From an uncultured Enterobacteriaceae bacterium (GTDB lineage: Bacteria; Pseudomonadota; Gammaproteobacteria; Burkholderiales; UBA3065), in assembly GCA_964524005.1 (NCBI GenBank), contig CAZGBK010000005.1, positions 5,615 to 69,614 on the forward strand: a DNA stretch of 64,000 nucleotides. Reading direction: 5' to 3'. The position numbers and the translations under genes were made by a program. A model generated the notes under the pieces. The model made no database searches and had not been told where the DNA came from. It saw only the letters and a program-made list of their open reading frames with translations. Every line of letters begins with the position of its first letter. The stretch's first letter is position 1. Of this stretch, positions 4,418 to 51,302 are shown in pieces.

Positions 4418-5695
4418 TCAGCCGCGTACCTGGCCGTCGCCCAGCACGATCCACTTGAGCGTGGTCAGGCCCTCGAGGCCCACCGGGCCACGGGCATGGA
4501 GCTTGTCGGTGGAGATGCCGATCTCGGCGCCGAGGCCGTACTCGAAGCCGTCGGCGAAGCGCGTCGAGGCATTGACCATCACGCTGGACGAATCGACCTC
4601 GCGCAGGAAACGCCGCGCCCGGGTGTAGTCCTCGGTGACGATGCTGTCGGTGTGCTGGCTGCCGTAGGTGTTGATGTGCTCGATGGCCGCGTCCAGATCG
4701 TCGACGATGCGGATGCTGAGGATGGCGGCCAGGTACTCGGTACGCCAGTCGTCTTCAGTGGCAGCCTTGATGCCCGGCAACAGGGCGCACGTGCGCTCGC
4801 AACCGCGCAGCTCGATGCCTTTTTCCGCATACACGGCGGCCAGGCGCGGCAACACGTTCTGTGCAACGGCGGCGTTCACCAGCAGCGTCTCCATGGTGTT
4901 GCAGGTGCCCAGACGCTGCGTCTTGGCGTTGTCGGCGATGCGCATGGCTTTGTCGATGTCGGCGCCCTCGTCGATATAGACGTGGCAGATGCCGTCCAGG
5001 TGCTTGATCACCGGGATCCGTGCCTCGCGGTCGATGCGCTCGACCAGGCTCTTGCCGCCACGCGGCACGATCACGTCCACGTACTGCTTCATGCTGATGA
5101 GTTCGCCCACTGCGGCGCGGTCGGTGGTCTCGACCACCTGCACCGCTGTCTCTGGCAGGCCGGCCTCGCGCAGGCCCTCGCGGACACAGGCGGCGATGGC
5201 GCGGTTGGCGCGGATCGCCTCGGAGCCGCCGCGCAGGATGCAGGCATTGCCGCTCTTCAGGCAGAGGCCAGCGGCGTCTGCCGTGACGTTGGGCCGCGCC
5301 TCGTAGATGATGCCGATCACACCCAGCGGCACGCGCATGCGGCCGACCTGGATGCCCGACGGCCGGTAGGCGAAGCCGCCCATCTCGCCGACCGGGTCCG
5401 GCAATGCCGCGATCTGCTCCAGCCCGGCAGCCATCGACTCGACACCCTTGGCGGTGAGCGTGAGGCGGTCGATCATCGCAGAATCCAGCCCGGCAGCCTT
5501 GGCCGCGTCGACATCGGCGGTGTTGGCAGCGAGCAGCGCGGTGGCATCGCGGCGGATGGCCGCAGCCATCACGGCGAGCGCGCGGTTCTTGGCGTTGGTA
5601 TCGGCGCGCGCCAAGGCGCGGCTCGCGGTGCGAGCAGCCTGGCCCAGGCCGTGCATGTAGGCAGGGATATCGGCGATGTCGGTCAGCGCGTTCAT
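4418..5695 (-). CDS. proA: Gamma-glutamyl phosphate reductase
   Basis: [54 protein letters not shown]. Confidence 0.97.
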
Positions 5696-45323: not shown

Positions 45324-48300
45324 CTAGGTGGAAGTCGGCTGCAAGGCCTGCAGCAGGTCGCGGACCGTCCGGCTGCGCTCGCTCAGGCTGAGCTCGGGCA
45401 GCGGCACCCGCACGCGGTCGGCCCCCATGAAACGGGCACCTTTGTGGTGCTGCACCAGCTCCATCAGGCGCAGTGGGTCGACAGCGGTGTCACTGCGGAA
45501 CTGCACCGTCAGCATCTCCTCCGACGCATCCAGCTTGACGATGCCCAGACCACCGCAGGCGAGCCGCAGCCGGTGGCATTCGAGCAAGGTCTGCGCTGGC
45601 GGCGGGAGCTGGCCGAAGCGGTCGACCAGCTCCTCGTGCAAGGCAGTGAGCGCGTCGTGGTCGTCGCAGTTGGCGAGCCGCTTGTAGAGGATCAAGCGCT
45701 GGTGCGGGTCGCCGCAGTAGTCGTCGGGCAACAGCGCCGGCGCGTGCAGGTTGATCTCGGTGGTGACGGCCAGTGGGGCATCAAGGTCGGGCTCCTTGCC
45801 GGCGCGCAACGAACGCACCGCGCTGTTGAGCATGTCGATGTACATGCCGAAGCCCACCTCTTGCATCTGCCCGCTTTGGCCTTCACCGAGCACCTCGCCG
45901 GCACCGCGGATCTCCAGGTCGTGCATGGCGAGGAAGAAGCCCGAGCCCAGCTCCTCCATCATCTGGATCGCCTCCAGCCGCTTCTTTGCCGCCGCCGACA
46001 AGCTCTCGTCCCCGGCTGTCAGCAAGTAGGCATAGGCCTGATGGTGACTACGTCCGACCCGGCCGCGCAGCTGGTGCAGCTGGGCCAGGCCAAAACGGTC
46101 CGCGCGGTTGATGAGGATGGTGTTGGCGGTCGGGACGTCGATACCGGTCTCGATGATGGTCGTACACAACAGCAGAGTGTGACGCTGGTGGTAGAAGTCG
46201 CGCATCACCTGTTCCAGCTCGCGCTCGGCCATCTGCCCGTGGGCCACGCCGATACGGGCCTCAGGGACCATCTGCATGAGCTTGTCGCGCATGTGCAGGA
46301 TGGTGTCGACCTCGTTGTGCAGGAAGTACACCTGCCCGCCGCGCTTCAATTCGCGCAGCACCGCCTCGCGGATATGGCCCTCGCTGTAGGGCACCACCAG
46401 CGTCTTGATGGCCAGCCGCCGCTGCGGCGCCGTGGCAATGACGGAAAAATCGCGCAGGCCTTCCAGGCTCATCGCCAGCGTACGCGGGATCGGTGTGGCG
46501 GTAAGCGTGAGCACGTCGACCTCGGCGCGCAGGCTCTTCAATGCCTCCTTCTGCCGCACCCCGAAGCGATGCTCCTCGTCGATGATGACCAGGCCCAGGT
46601 TCTTGAAGCGCACGTCCTTCTGCACCAGCCGGTGGGTGCCGATGATGAGGTCGATGCTGCCATCCTCCAGTCCTTTCAGCGCCGCCGTCTGTTCTTTTGG
46701 CGTACGAAAGCGCGAGAGTTCGGCGATACGCACCGGCCAGTCGGCAAAGCGGTCCTTGAAGTTCTGGAAGTGCTGCTCGGCCAACAACGTGGTCGGCACC
46801 AACACCGCCACCTGATAGCCGGCCATGAGCGCGACGAAGGCGGCACGCATGGCGACCTCGGTCTTGCCAAAGCCGACATCGCCGCAGACCAGCCGGTCCA
46901 TCGGCCGGCCAGCGGTGAGGTCCTGCAGCACCGCGCCGATGGCGGCAGCCTGGTCGGGCGTCTCCTCGAAGCCAAAACCCTCGGCGAAGGCTGCGTAGTC
47001 GTGTGCCGTGAGCGGCAAGGCTCGGCCCTGGCGAGCGGCCCGCTGAGCATAGAGATTGAGCAACTCGGCGGCGGTATCGCGCACCATCTTGGCGGTGCGG
47101 CGGCGGGCCTTCTCCCATTGTCCCGAGCCCAGCCGGTGCCAAGGCGCCGATTCCGCCGGGCCACCGGTGTAGCGGCTGATCACATGCAGCTGCGACACCG
47201 GTACGTAGAGGGTGTCTTCGCCCGCATATTCGATGAACAGGAACTCCGCCATGCCCTCTCCGGCATCCAGGCTGACCAGCCCACGGTAGCGTCCGACGCC
47301 GTGCGATTCGTGCACCACCGGATCGCCGATACGCAGCTCGGCGAGGTCGCGCAGCATGCCCTCGGAGTTGCGCCGAGCGTCATCACGACGGCGGGTCTGC
47401 CGCACCTGCGCGGCGTAGAGCTCGGCTTCGGTGACCACCGCGATGCTGGCGTCGCTGTCCAGCCAACCCTGCGCGAGTGGCCCGACACCGAGCATCAGGC
47501 CAGCATCGGCATCGCAGAAGGCGGCCCAGTCGGTACACGGTGCAGGCGACATGCCATGCTCGTGCATCAGTTGCAGCAGGGTCTCGCGGCGACCGGGTGA
47601 CTCGGCCAGCACCAGCACCCGGCCGCCGAAGCTGCCGACGAAGCGCTTCAGTGCACCCAGTGGGTCGTCGGCACGGCGGTCGATGATCAGCTCTGGTAGC
47701 CCGCCAGGCGAAGTGGCCGAAAGACGCGCCTGCACACGACGGCCGATACTGGCGAACAGCGCCTCGGCGGTCAGGTAGAGCTCGCCGGGGGGCAGCAGCG
47801 GGCGTTCCGGGTCACCGCGGAACAGCTCGTAACGCGACTTGATGTCGGCCCAAAAGGTCTCTGCGGCGGCATGGACATCACCATGCAAAGCGACCCTGGC
47901 GGTTTCGGGCAGGTAGTCAGCCAGCGTTGCCAGGGCATCGAAAAACAATGGCAGGTAGTACTCGATGCCCGGCGGTGCGACGCCGTTGCTGACGTCTTTG
48001 TAGATGCGCGAGCGGCTCGGATCGCCCTCGATGTGCTCGCGGTAGCGGCTGCGAAATGCCGAGCGTGCCGCGTCATCCAAAGGAAATTCGCGCGCTGGCA
48101 GCAGCCGCACCTCGGGCACCGGGTAGATGGTGCGCTGTGTCTCCGGGTCGAAGGTGCGGATCGACTCGATCTCGCTGTCGAACAGGTCGATGCGGTAAGG
48201 CACCGCACTGCCCATGGGGAACAGGTCGATCAGGTGACCCCGCAGGCAGAACTCGCCGGGTGACAGCACCTGGCTCATGTGCGTGTAGCCGGCGACGGTG

Positions 48301-48710
48301 AGTTGCTCGCGCAGCTTCTGCTCGTCGAGCCGGCCACCTTTCTTCAGGAAGAAGGTGCGTGCCGCCACATAGCTCACTGGCACCAGCCGCAGCATGGCGG
48401 TGGTCACCGGCACGATCAACACATCGCATTGGCCCTGACTGCTTTGATACAAGGCCGCCAGCCGGTCGGACACAAGGTCGGGGTGCGGCGACAGCGTGTC
48501 GTAGGGCAGCGTCTCCCAGTCGGCCAGCAGATGCACGCGCAACGCTGGCGCGAACCAATGCACCTCATCGAGCAGGCGCTGAGCATCCAGCCCGGTGGCA
48601 GTCAGCACCACGAGAGGGCCGTCGGCGGCCAGCCGGGCCAGCGCCAGAGCGTCGGCAACGGTTGTCAGCGCCTTGCTGTGGGCGGTCTTGAGGTTGGAAG
48701 GCGAGCTCAT
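45324..48710 (-). CDS. mfd: Transcription-repair coupling factor
   Basis: DWETLPYD, CGDVGFGKTEVA, DEEHRFGV, LHQLRGRVGRS, DLEIRGAGE, TRCF C-terminus. Confidence 0.97.
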   Translation of the reverse strand: MSSPSNLKTAHSKALTTVADALALARLAADGPLVVLTATGLDAQRLLDEVHWFAPALRVHLLADWETLPYDTLSPHPDLVSDRLAALYQSSQGQCDVLIVPVTTAMLRLVPVSYVAARTFFLKKGGRLDEQKLREQLTVAGYTHMSQVLSPGEFCLRGHLIDLFPMGSAVPYRIDLFDSEIESIRTFDPETQRTIYPVPEVRLLPAREFPLDDAARSAFRSRYREHIEGDPSRSRIYKDVSNGVAPPGIEYYLPLFFDALATLADYLPETARVALHGDVHAAAETFWADIKSRYELFRGDPERPLLPPGELYLTAEALFASIGRRVQARLSATSPGGLPELIIDRRADDPLGALKRFVGSFGGRVLVLAESPGRRETLLQLMHEHGMSPAPCTDWAAFCDADAGLMLGVGPLAQGWLDSDASIAVVTEAELYAAQVRQTRRRDDARRNSEGMLRDLAELRIGDPVVHESHGVGRYRGLVSLDAGEGMAEFLFIEYAGEDTLYVPVSQLHVISRYTGGPAESAPWHRLGSGQWEKARRRTAKMVRDTAAELLNLYAQRAARQGRALPLTAHDYAAFAEGFGFEETPDQAAAIGAVLQDLTAGRPMDRLVCGDVGFGKTEVAMRAAFVALMAGYQVAVLVPTTLLAEQHFQNFKDRFADWPVRIAELSRFRTPKEQTAALKGLEDGSIDLIIGTHRLVQKDVRFKNLGLVIIDEEHRFGVRQKEALKSLRAEVDVLTLTATPIPRTLAMSLEGLRDFSVIATAPQRRLAIKTLVVPYSEGHIREAVLRELKRGGQVYFLHNEVDTILHMRDKLMQMVPEARIGVAHGQMAERELEQVMRDFYHQRHTLLLCTTIIETGIDVPTANTILINRADRFGLAQLHQLRGRVGRSHHQAYAYLLTAGDESLSAAAKKRLEAIQMMEELGSGFFLAMHDLEIRGAGEVLGEGQSGQMQEVGFGMYIDMLNSAVRSLRAGKEPDLDAPLAVTTEINLHAPALLPDDYCGDPHQRLILYKRLANCDDHDALTALHEELVDRFGQLPPPAQTLLECHRLRLACGGLGIVKLDASEEMLTVQFRSDTAVDPLRLMELVQHHKGARFMGADRVRVPLPELSLSERSRTVRDLLQALQPTST

Positions 48711-48800
48711 GAGGCGCCGGATTATACGGAAGCACGGGATCCGGACGCCGTACCGGAGCCCGCAGGACTCTTGTTCGAGCTCATTTGTAAGCGATTTGCC

Positions 48801-48846
48801 TTGACTATCTTGCGCACAACCTAATAAATTAGTCCGTAAGAACTAA
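48801..48846 (+). promoter_or_regulatory. Candidate sigma70 promoter with overlapping inverted repeat (operator) for the riboswitch-subtilase transcript
   Basis: TTGACT-18 bp-TAAATT in an AT-rich patch; imperfect palindrome TTAGTCC-GTAA-GAACTAA at 48829-48846. Confidence 0.5.
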
Positions 48847-48855
48847 CAACCTCGC

Positions 48856-48926
48856 GCCGAGAGGTCAGTTCCAGACAGACCCGGCAAACGGGCAGTAACC
48901 CTGGTTCCCCGCAAGGGGTCACCGGC
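48856..48926 (+). ncRNA. Unidentified multi-stem RNA element directly 5' of the c-di-GMP-I aptamer
   Basis: GCCG/CGGC closing stem, CCCG-GCAAA-CGGG hairpin, GGT-T-CCCC-GCAA-GGGG-TC-ACC hairpin; family not recognised. Confidence 0.4.
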
Positions 48927-48928
48927 AA

Positions 48929-49015
48929 GACGCAAGGGCAAACCGCGTGAAAACGCGGGACGCAAAGCCTCCGGCCTAGGGACTTCGGTCTACGGTAGCG
49001 GGGTTACCGGCTGCG
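48929..49015 (+). promoter_or_regulatory. c-di-GMP-I (GEMM-I) riboswitch
   Basis: GGGCAAACC-GCGT-GAAA-ACGC-GGGACGCAAAGCCTCCGGCCTA...GGTAGCGGGGTTACCG matches the Vc2-type consensus; P1 CGCA/TGCG. Confidence 0.93.
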
Positions 49016-49061
49016 ATCCGTTATTCGCGCTTGCGCTTGTCACTCTGTTTGGAGCAGGCGC

Positions 49062-51302
49062 ATGCGTTTTGCCGCGGCCATCACGGCCCTTTGTATCGGA
49101 CATTCTTCGTCCGCCTTCGCGAATGCCAGTCCGGCCGAACTGTCGGCTTCGAGCGCGGCCGGTCGCGTGGGCGCTTTCTTCGCACACGAGCAGGGCTACA
49201 CCGGTAGCGGGGTGCGGATCGGCATCCTCGACTCGGGGCTGGGCAATGGCACCGGCGAATTCAACGGCCGCATTGTCGCGCCCTACGACACCAATGACGG
49301 CAGCAACAACAGCACCGACACTCTGGGCCACGGCACAAAGATCGCTGGCCTGTTGGGCGCCGCCGCCAACGGCAGTGGGGTTGTCGGCGTCGCGCCCGAT
49401 GCACTGCTCATCCCGGTCCGGGTCTACGACAGCGCCAACCTCGCGTCTTCATCGCGAGTGCAGGGCGGGGTCCGCCATGCGCTCGCCAACGGTGCCCGCA
49501 TCATCAACTTGTCGCTCGGATCCCGCTCTGCGCCCATGGCTGAGACGGCGGTTCGCGAGGCTGTGGCTGGGGGCGCGCTGGTGGTTGCGGCGGCTGGTAA
49601 CTTCGGCGACGCCAACCCAATCTGGCCAGCACGCTTCGCCAGCGCCAGCTGGGCCAACGGGCAGGTTCTGGCCGTCGGCGCTGTCGACAACAGCAACAAT
49701 ATCGCCAGCTTTTCCAACCGCGCAGGCGACACCGCCGAGTTCTTCCTGGTCGCGCCTGGCAGCAGTCTGCAGACCACTTGCCCGAGCGGCTATTGCAGTG
49801 GATCTGGCACCTCGTATGCAGCCCCGGTCGTGGCTGGCGCAGCAGGCCTGCTGCTCGGTCAATGGTCGTATCTGACGGCTCAGCAGACAGCCGCCATCCT
49901 GCTCGAGACGGCGACCGATCTGGGCGCTCCCGGTGTCGACGCGATCTACGGACACGGCTTGGTCAATGTCAACCGTGCGATGCAGCCGGTTGGCACGCTG
50001 GTTACGTACACTTCGGCAGGCGCGCCAGGGGAGCCTGCCGCGCCGTCACCCAGCATCGCCGCCCCACCGCGTCCACTGACCAAGGCCGAACTGAAGGCCG
50101 AGCGCAAAGCCGCAAAGGCCCGCGCCAAAGCCGCACAGAAGGCAGCGAAGGCGCTGGCCAAATTGCAGCTGCAAGCATCGCGAGCGCTGGCCAATGGACT
50201 TGCCCAAGCAGCTGACGACGGCCTGCTGACGGTTGCCGGATTCGACGACTATGGCCGTCACTACACGTACGACCTTGGCGCGAACATCGGCCGCCGCGAT
50301 GTCACTTTGCTCGAGACGCTGCTCGGCGAAGCGGATCGCGGCTTGGGCATCCACAGTGTCGCCCTGGGTCGATCGGCCAGCCTGCTCACCTACATCGACA
50401 GCCCACTGGTGCCGGTCCAGCTGCAAGACCCGCTGCTGCTGGCCGGTGGTGGCCAAGAGATGCGCATCCAGGCCACTTTGTTCGAAACCGACCTTGGCAC
50501 CCAGCGATTCAGCGCCGGCAGCGGCGGTCTAGCCAACCAGTTTTTCGGCATCGGGGCCGGTGAGAGCGCCGGCTGGCTGGGGCAAGCGATCGCCAACCCG
50601 CTGGTCGGAACGCTTGGCCTGCATGCCCACGCCGGCTGGGAAACGGTGCTCGGTGATGGCCGCAGCCTGCGTGCCGGACTTGTCAGCGGGCGCGACCCTC
50701 TGGCTGGCCACTTGGGTTTGCGCAACGAAAACAACCGCCTGTGGATCGCTGAGCTGCACCAGCAGTTCGGCAACACCCGCATCGCCGTTGGGACCAGCCT
50801 GCTGGACGAGACTGCTGGTGTGCTGGGTAGCAGCGGTTCGCTGCTGGGTGCCAGCCGCAGCGGTGCCCTGCAACTGGCGGTCAGCCACACCCTCAGCGAC
50901 CGCCTCAGCATCGCCGCCCAGTACAGCACCGTCCGCAACCATGGTGAAGCCAGCGACACGGTGCTGAGTGCAGGCCGAATCATCGCATCGAGCTGGGGTG
51001 TCGGGCTGGTCGCAAGTGCGGTCCTGCAGAGCGACGACCGCCTGAGCTTGGCTTTGTCGCAGCCGCTGGCAGCCACCTCGGGACACCTGCTACTGGATGC
51101 GAGCACGGGTGTCGCCGCCGATGGCACTCCGGTGCAATCGGTGCGCCGCATCGCCCTTGATGGCGAGCGACCGCTGCGTGCCGAGCTGCGCTACAGCGTA
51201 CCGCTGGCGGATACCGGAGCGCTGTCACTGGCATTGGTGCACCAACGCGATGCCATTGGCAGCGAGAGCGCCGCCATGGTGCGTCTCAATCAGCGCTTCT
51301 AG
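49062..51302 (+). CDS. S8 subtilisin-like serine peptidase with C-terminal putative OM beta-barrel
   Basis: Signal peptide; triad ILDSG / GHGT / GTSYAAP, AAGN oxyanion, YGHGLVN; terminal VRLNQRF. Confidence 0.88.
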   Translation: MRFAAAITALCIGHSSSAFANASPAELSASSAAGRVGAFFAHEQGYTGSGVRIGILDSGLGNGTGEFNGRIVAPYDTNDGSNNSTDTLGHGTKIAGLLGAAANGSGVVGVAPDALLIPVRVYDSANLASSSRVQGGVRHALANGARIINLSLGSRSAPMAETAVREAVAGGALVVAAAGNFGDANPIWPARFASASWANGQVLAVGAVDNSNNIASFSNRAGDTAEFFLVAPGSSLQTTCPSGYCSGSGTSYAAPVVAGAAGLLLGQWSYLTAQQTAAILLETATDLGAPGVDAIYGHGLVNVNRAMQPVGTLVTYTSAGAPGEPAAPSPSIAAPPRPLTKAELKAERKAAKARAKAAQKAAKALAKLQLQASRALANGLAQAADDGLLTVAGFDDYGRHYTYDLGANIGRRDVTLLETLLGEADRGLGIHSVALGRSASLLTYIDSPLVPVQLQDPLLLAGGGQEMRIQATLFETDLGTQRFSAGSGGLANQFFGIGAGESAGWLGQAIANPLVGTLGLHAHAGWETVLGDGRSLRAGLVSGRDPLAGHLGLRNENNRLWIAELHQQFGNTRIAVGTSLLDETAGVLGSSGSLLGASRSGALQLAVSHTLSDRLSIAAQYSTVRNHGEASDTVLSAGRIIASSWGVGLVASAVLQSDDRLSLALSQPLAATSGHLLLDASTGVAADGTPVQSVRRIALDGERPLRAELRYSVPLADTGALSLALVHQRDAIGSESAAMVRLNQRF

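Follow-up and report, generated by a model that had tools for sequence, protein, structure and literature searches.

A species-restricted leader segment 5' of a c-di-GMP-I riboswitch as a possible anti-Shine-Dalgarno arm of the expression platform

The c-di-GMP-I riboswitch that precedes a subtilase gene in this uncultured bacterium carries, upstream of its aptamer, a leader segment peculiar to a single species. The initial annotation had placed in this segment (48856-48926) a branched fold of about 70 nt and proposed a novel element acting together with the aptamer as a two-input leader. By present evidence, the element is not supported as an independent conserved structured RNA. It holds a stretch of 12 nt complementary to the Shine-Dalgarno (SD) region of the downstream gene, and the explanation that we tentatively rank first, at a little under an even chance, is that 48838-48926 would be a species-specific 5' arm of the expression platform, able to clamp the SD. 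A neutral leader is nearly as likely. Coordinates refer to the window, that is the whole 64-kb stretch of DNA analysed; its source genome is called G000, and G004 is another genome of the same genus.

Layout of the locus

The G000 assembly measures 1.75 Mb, is 88% complete and belongs to a family of 7 genomes in one genus. Along the region, a promoter-like site is followed by a leader of about 89 nt, the c-di-GMP-I aptamer, a 50-nt platform and the gene:

45324-48710, divergent and upstream of the leader: mfd (gene call)
48801-48830, + strand: promoter-like site (TTGACT 48801-06, 18 nt, TAAATT 48825-30)
48927-49011, + strand: c-di-GMP-I aptamer (RF01051), directly 3' of the element
49013-49028, + strand: small hairpin GCGA-UCCGUUAU-UCGC between aptamer and platform, nearly invariant between G000 and G004
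49030-49062, + strand: expression platform, with the helix A 3' strand (49030-41), hairpin B (49032-40/49054-62), SD GGAG (49051-54) and the anti-SD target (49044-55)
49062-51302, + strand: gene (ORF) of a 746-aa subtilase (Peptidase_S8; PF00082, E 1.7e-45, residues 48-299)

The aptamer scores 76.5 bits against a gathering score of 35 (E 9e-15) and spans model positions 1-87 of 87; a search of the whole genome returned the same match. Between G000 and G004, four of its pairs are changed on both sides and still paired (RNAalifold). The downstream riboswitch is an ordinary member of the RF01051 class, and binding of c-di-GMP is predicted. A second, weaker match lies outside the window in G000 (C17:28524-28598, 47.2 bits) and has a counterpart in G004 (C17:9515-9589, 51.8 bits); both (loci L016 and L018) have a divergent core and upstream sequence unlike the element. 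Switches of this class typically regulate surface or secreted proteins. The S8 protease is of the secreted type, and in the first-ranked explanation, with the same tentativeness, its translation would be controlled by the riboswitch. In an RNA-library run (X8), one contig of 267 nt agrees exactly with the protease gene over 49155-49300 and includes none of the leader; this hints weakly at expression of the gene somewhere, with DNA carry-over as a possible source.

The promoter-like site matches the consensus at 9 of 12 positions and is the sole sigma-70-like site in 48650-49150, where shuffled sequences are expected to yield 0.1. The call rests on this consensus match, and the start is predicted, not mapped. 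Since the start is predicted near 48837-48840, the element would lie within the RNA. The scan detected nothing promoter-like on either strand of 48831-48926, and a scan of the + strand gave no terminator. A perfect TATAAT on the minus strand (48726-48721) ends 10 nt before the mfd start codon (48710-48708), so that the mfd mRNA may be nearly leaderless; the promoter scan found no -35 matching this box.

Near-identical strains were recovered from several sources. A metagenome contig (L019) is identical to the element over 71 of 71 nt, contigs of run X4 cover the entire stretch with 6 differences, and a contig of run X6 covers 48835-49021 with a single one; run X5 gave short fragments only, one of which is a G004-like aptamer with 17 nt of upstream sequence. 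The strain differences are located at 48675, 48678, 48776, 48830, 48833 and 48979, and the X4 and X6 contigs show no change within 48834-48978. The element is thus free of substitutions in three strain sources (L019, X4 and X6), which is uninformative at about 0.9% divergence. T>C changes at 48830 and 48833 (L019 and X4) fall on the last base of the predicted -10 hexamer and just after it, and a third common strain variant, G>A at 48979, falls in the P3 region of the aptamer.

Predicted folding of the upstream element

The element and its flanks contain the following predicted parts:

48849-48865, + strand: hairpin H0 (ACCUC / GAGGU), predicted only, in the minimum free energy (MFE) fold of 48838-49075 and in constrained folds
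48868-48879, + strand: anti-SD stretch GUUCCAGACAGA, forming 12 contiguous pairs (2 G-U) with 49044-55, UCUGUUUGGAGC, and covering GGAG
48880-48892, + strand: hairpin H2, CCCG-GCAAA-CGGG, pair probability 0.30-0.99
48903-48923, + strand: hairpin H3, GGU-U-CCCC-GCAA-GGGG-UC-ACC, pair probability 0.91-0.99, the only part with a counterpart in G004
48915-48926, + strand: copy of the aptamer 3' end
48924-48936, + strand: helix A 5' strand (GGCAAG-A-CGCAAG), pairing with 49030-41 or, as helix A', with 49063-73

All strings from which the branched fold had been assembled are in place: GCCG at 48856-59 and CGGC at 48923-26 as closing stem, AGAGGTCA at 48860-67 and TAACCCT at 48896-902 as interrupted helix, GTTCCAGACAGA at 48868-79 as junction, CCCG-GCAAA-CGGG at 48880-92 and GGT-T-CCCC-GCAA-GGGG-TC-ACC at 48903-23. 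The fold as drawn uses C48923 twice, in the hairpin 48903-23 and in the closing stem. Its two self-consistent versions reach -19.7 and -18.3 kcal/mol. The MFE of -27.7 lies 8-9 below them, and even an average dinucleotide shuffle is more stable (mean of 200, -22.43, sd 2.99). Partition-function ensembles were computed in five contexts (the element by itself, the UTR, and the UTR extended by 24 coding nt, the aptamer being enforced or left free). The hairpins at 48880-92 and 48903-23 proved robust, and the closing stem and the AGAGGTCA/TAACCCT helix fell away, with a mean pair probability of 0.00 in all ensembles. Even the MFE fold is unremarkable in stability for its composition, as 8 of the 200 shuffles fold equally well (z = -1.76); for the last 40 nt of the element the folding z is -0.65.

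Two mutually exclusive local folds are predicted, one in which a hairpin at 48856-85 hides the anti-SD stretch and one in which 48849-65 and 48880-92 expose it. The loop of H2 bears GGCAAAC, the 5' signature of the c-di-GMP-I consensus, a string that occurs 11 times in the 64-kb window on both strands. Outside the element proper, AACCUCGC at 48848-48855 can form 8 pairs with the 3' strand of aptamer P2 (GCGGGGUU, 48998-49005); this alternative pairing might disrupt the aptamer and reaches P 0.40 in one unconstrained ensemble. The segment GGTC...GACC (48863-81) is in addition an imperfect palindrome at the DNA level.

A stable hairpin abutting the aptamer is not a general feature of such leaders: of 33 distinct leaders, drawn from 34 of 44 c-di-GMP-I loci, 5 fold at -12 or below (MFE) over the 40 nt next to the aptamer. 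The element may act as a 5' stabiliser, a role that the initial annotation had also considered; the predicted start at about 48837-40 leaves at least 10 nt single-stranded before the first hairpin, and the G004 hairpin may be 5'-terminal.

Search for a known or recurring RNA family

The proposal that the element belongs to no known class agrees with the Rfam scans, in which no family matches it, either within 48000-50000 or when it is searched alone (48835-48932; Rfam 15, E<=10). At this threshold the element alone returned just a 12-nt hairpin, matched by two CRISPR-repeat models at 12.9 and 12.8 bits, well short of their gathering scores (50 and 39). RF01051 itself gave no match at E<=10 in 48835-48932 alone, nor in 48000-50000 apart from the known aptamer.

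Recurrence was looked for at increasing distances. The element is single-copy across the 7 family genomes, where the best non-self match is 19 nt long (E 0.08). BLAST of 48780-49100 against 101 relatives matched 12 genomes, G000 included; query positions 1-140 remained unmatched, and besides G000 and G004 the matches comprise the aptamer core only. Two covariance models were built, R1 from the branched fold of the initial annotation and R2 from the MFE fold. In 151 genomes of the order, 71 of them with RF01051, the best non-self matches of R1 and R2 reach 27-28 bits and none is near an aptamer, so that 0 of 150 other genomes have a match beside an aptamer. Across the 44 c-di-GMP-I loci (131,510 bases, including a few duplicate places) R2 gave 2 and R1 gave 4 matches at E<=10, and 0 of 44 loci have an aptamer-adjacent one.

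Three pattern scans were run over 185,579 species genomes. The pattern GGTCAGTTCCAG, a gap and GGCAAAC returned at least 120 stretches, and among the matches listed the aptamer core follows in 0 of 120. CAGTTCCAG followed by a gap and the aptamer core returned 31 stretches, four of which have a c-di-GMP-I-like core by eye (L203, L216, L217 and L219) and contain nothing like the element beyond the 9-mer. The platform pattern returned five stretches, with an aptamer only in L227, a leader of the G004 type; the other four are chance matches. In metagenomes, the conserved platform pattern found one contig among the matches listed, namely the near-identical strain L019. Relatives of the S8 protein were sought in species-genome contigs, with 52 pattern matches and 0 confirmed. 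As far as these data reach, the element is not conserved in homologous leaders, and its copies in the near-identical strains offer no variation in which covariation could appear.

The homologous leader in G004

The only homologous leader found is that of G004 (contig C33, locus L020, about 5020-5200, minus strand). It aligns over 48920-49034 at 81% identity and not over the element (BLAST). This leader is without 48838-48902 and keeps the aptamer-proximal hairpin together with CACCGGC. RNAalifold of G000 and G004 retains the hairpin directly 5' of CACCGGC with 7 pairs, one of them changed on both sides; the GNRA loop of H3, pointed out in the initial annotation, is absent from G004, where the loop reads UAU. 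A TTTAAT box lies a few bases 5' of the equivalent hairpin. The idea of a self-contained domain, or of a second aptamer in a two-input gate, finds no backing in a single homologous leader that lacks 48838-48902, nor in searches that returned no recurrence.

The genes behind the two leaders are unrelated. In G004 the cassette is followed by a gene whose product exceeds 1684 aa and combines bacterial cadherin-like with Ig domains; HlyD- and OEP-family genes lie upstream of this gene. No ortholog of the S8 gene exists in the genus, the nearest relative in the family being a 36% match in G002; 400 other genomes of the order contain two distant S8 homologues (48% and 40%), with no Rfam match at the gathering score and no riboswitch. 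The same cassette thus stands before unrelated genes, given that the S8 gene lacks a genus ortholog and a different gene follows in G004; the homologous sequence starts immediately 5' of the aptamer.

The platform is shared. The 3' end of the element is coupled to it by prediction: as had been noted for GGC (48924-26), the segment 48924-36 is predicted to pair downstream with the anti-RBS strand 49030-41 (helix A). The helix A core GCAAG/CUUGC is kept in G004, with an adjoining pair that is C-G in G000 and A-U in G004. Hairpin B, which encloses the SD (GGAG, 7 nt before the ATG), is likewise kept, with 8 pairs, two of which show a one-sided change (RNAalifold). Helix A and hairpin B compete for the strand 49032-40, and a strand shared between competing helices is the usual design of a translational platform. 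With both the core of helix A and hairpin B preserved in G004, the platform into which the element plugs is real. A Vc2-style P1 helix was also considered for the lineage and dropped, as no register was conserved by eye between G000 and G004. In the segment 49006-49035, ACCGGC-N-GCGATCCGTT-NN-TCGCGCTTGC, only 3 of about 30 positions differ from G004, a higher conservation than that of the aptamer stems; this suggests several overlapping constraints, possibly alternative pairings.

Complementarity to the Shine-Dalgarno region

The stretch 48868-79, described in the initial annotation as an unpaired junction, is in fact a contiguous 12-bp complement of the SD region 49044-55. This duplex is called helix C. 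It was first spotted in a fold and the controls were run afterwards. Among natural 89-nt segments of the window, taken from both strands with the reverse complement of the ribosome-binding site (RBS) itself left in, 7 of 1438 reach 12 contiguous pairs over GGAG. When leaders and RBSs were mismatched, 8 of 930 pairs reached 12, and the present leader ranks first of 31; the start was assigned heuristically in these 31 c-di-GMP-I leaders, and 8 of the 39 distinct ones were set aside for want of an assignable start. Runs of at least 10 bp are found in 3 of the 31 leaders versus 5.9% of the mismatched controls. By duplex energy helix C is less striking: it is equalled or surpassed by 64 of 719 natural window segments and, among shuffles, by 26 of 2000.

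In the UTR-only transcript (48838-49061), helices A and C are predicted with P 0.97-0.99, with or without the aptamer enforced, and enforcing helix A brings helix C into the MFE fold unforced. With 24 coding nt added, a rival fold comes out at -101.2 versus -100.2 kcal/mol and the probability of helix C falls to 0.24-0.53. This rival fold comprises the local hairpin 48856-85 of the element, helix A' (48924-34 with the start-codon region 49063-73) and hairpin B. Two mutually exclusive sets are thus predicted within about 1 kcal/mol of each other, namely helix A with helix C versus helix A' with hairpin B and the hairpin 48856-85. The SD is largely paired in every modelled state and no ligand-dependent ON state emerges, so that the direction of the switch and the effect of the ligand are unreadable from thermodynamics alone. 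Helix C has no counterpart in G004, as no 5' complement of the G004 SD is present, and comparative support is therefore absent.

In the mechanism that we propose, 48838-48926 would fold into small local hairpins (48880-92, 48903-23 and perhaps 48849-65), which would leave or present 48868-79, complementary to 49044-55. Helix A, partly shared with G004, and the anti-SD pairing would then close round the aptamer as a long clamp in two parts, with the ribosome-binding site buried in it. To the conserved contest of helix A with hairpin B, the extra arm would add a further lowering or gating of translation. Such a mechanism supposes an RNA that includes the stretch, a pairing that takes place in vivo and some relation of this pairing to ligand binding.

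Possible origin as a decayed tandem aptamer

The last 12 nt of the element (GGGGTCACCGGC, 48915-26) match the aptamer 3' end (GGGGTTACCGGC, 49000-11) in phase at 11 positions, and the two copies are spaced by 85, which is one aptamer length. In a same-position comparison the 38 other distinct leaders reach at most 6 of 12, making G000 an outlier among 39; in G004, 9 of 12 positions agree when the opening 3 nt of its Rfam match are counted in. GGCAAA, CGGG, CGCAA and the 12-mer furthermore follow each other in the element as in the aptamer. Ordinary alignment of element and aptamer lacks significance, being equalled or bettered in 595 and 447 of 1000 shuffles. Gap-tolerant alignment is marginal: under its three schemes, 65, 50 and 178 of 1000 shuffles score as high, and so do 18, 20 and 64 of 1428 natural segments.

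A present-day c-di-GMP-I aptamer was rejected as an identity for the element, which has no RF01051 match and in which nothing corresponds to the tetraloop hairpin or to P3. Since c-di-GMP-I units often occur in tandem, a decayed upstream aptamer is a reasonable origin; the repeats may point to such a copy from a former tandem doublet, a derivation that we judge unlikely on balance. A relic origin is compatible with a functional as well as with a neutral present state. If it holds, the element may illustrate the appearance of a tandem aptamer after decay.

Competing explanations

The reading nearly as likely as the anti-SD arm is a neutral one, in which the roughly 65 extra nt are chance sequence of the locus or an inert relic, the hairpins and the SD complementarity are by-products of a G+C-rich sequence, and the aptamer-proximal hairpin at most insulates or stabilises the RNA. 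It accords with a fold no better than that of shuffled sequences (z -1.76, 8/200; last 40 nt, z -0.65), with a G004 leader that works without 48838-48902, with the duplex-energy control in which 64 of 719 natural segments equal helix C, and with an S8 gene that has no ortholog in the genus; as the cassette stands before unrelated genes, S8 in G000 and cadherin-like in G004, the upstream flank need not be homologous. However, a 12-bp contiguous SD complement is rare (7/1438; 8/930), the in-phase 11/12 repeat is an outlier among 39 leaders, and three strain sources all keep the 89-nt extension as it is, although at about 0.9% divergence an absence of changes over 71 nt argues only weakly. The anti-SD arm for its part has to accommodate the natural T>C at 48830, in the last base of the predicted -10. 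That same variation, which alters the predicted G000 -10, speaks for an improbable third account, in which 48838-48902 would lie outside the mRNA: transcription would start just 5' of the hairpin 48903-23, as the G004 TTTAAT box a few bases before the equivalent hairpin might suggest, and the upstream DNA, with its imperfect palindrome GGTC...GACC, would be promoter or operator sequence shared with the divergent mfd. Against it, no promoter-like site was found in 48831-48926 on either strand and the only site (9/12) lies upstream.

Least probable, by a clear distance from the anti-SD arm, is a new ligand-, protein- or sRNA-binding domain that would make a two-input switch with the c-di-GMP aptamer. 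Its arguments are that no known family matches, that the element is by prediction physically coupled to the platform, that one of the two exclusive local folds hides the anti-SD (48856-85) and the other exposes it (48849-65 with 48880-92), and that tandem arrangements with c-di-GMP-I are known, as described in PMC9481103. Yet the models matched beside the aptamer in 0 of 150 other genomes of the order and at 0 of 44 loci, the 7 family genomes contain no copy, the only homologous leader is without the element, and the branched fold has a probability of 0.00. The form in which this idea might survive, a species-restricted second input module whose hiding or exposing of the anti-SD would be set by a ligand, protein or sRNA, is equally far-fetched.

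Comparison with known systems

With translational, SD-sequestering c-di-GMP-I switches (RF01051) the leader shares a full-length aptamer and a 5' flank that competes with the SD hairpin for the platform strand. The genes fit as well, an S8 protease here and a cadherin-like giant protein beside HlyD/OEP genes in G004. Unlike those switches, it has about 89 nt before the aptamer and a second anti-SD 5' of it.

Tandem c-di-GMP-I arrangements have been reported in PMC9481103 as 347 doublets and 12 triplets (see also PMC4759541); an example of such tandems is Bc3-5 of Bacillus thuringiensis. The present element resembles such doublets in ending with an 11/12 copy of the aptamer 3' end and in carrying GGCAAAC and CGCAA in aptamer order, but it is no aptamer now. 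The glycine/c-di-GMP-I and AdoCbl/c-di-GMP-I tandems, as presented in PMC9481103 (Table 2), likewise have a structured RNA 5' of the c-di-GMP-I aptamer; there, however, the c-di-GMP-I aptamer is joined by one of a recognised and widely conserved kind that has a platform to itself, whereas the element is familyless and confined to one species. The c-di-GMP-I switch Bc1 offers another parallel, since according to PMC11218506 it has an unusually long non-aptamer part, which adds regulatory behaviour. That extension lies downstream and uses terminators, whereas the present one lies upstream and no + strand terminator was found.

Implications

Had the idea of the initial annotation been true, a new aptamer class would have been joined to c-di-GMP-I; the evidence points instead to an ordinary riboswitch with an idiosyncratic, single-species leader, and nothing in this opens a long-standing question. 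If the very improbable second-input module were true, a cassette that in a sister species serves a giant adhesin-like gene would have been re-wired into a gated or inverted switch of a secreted protease. An aptamer and platform cassette of 81% identity is common to unrelated genes of two species, an S8 protease and a cadherin-like substrate of type I secretion, and the extra 5' anti-SD of the protease copy could change the output of the switch.
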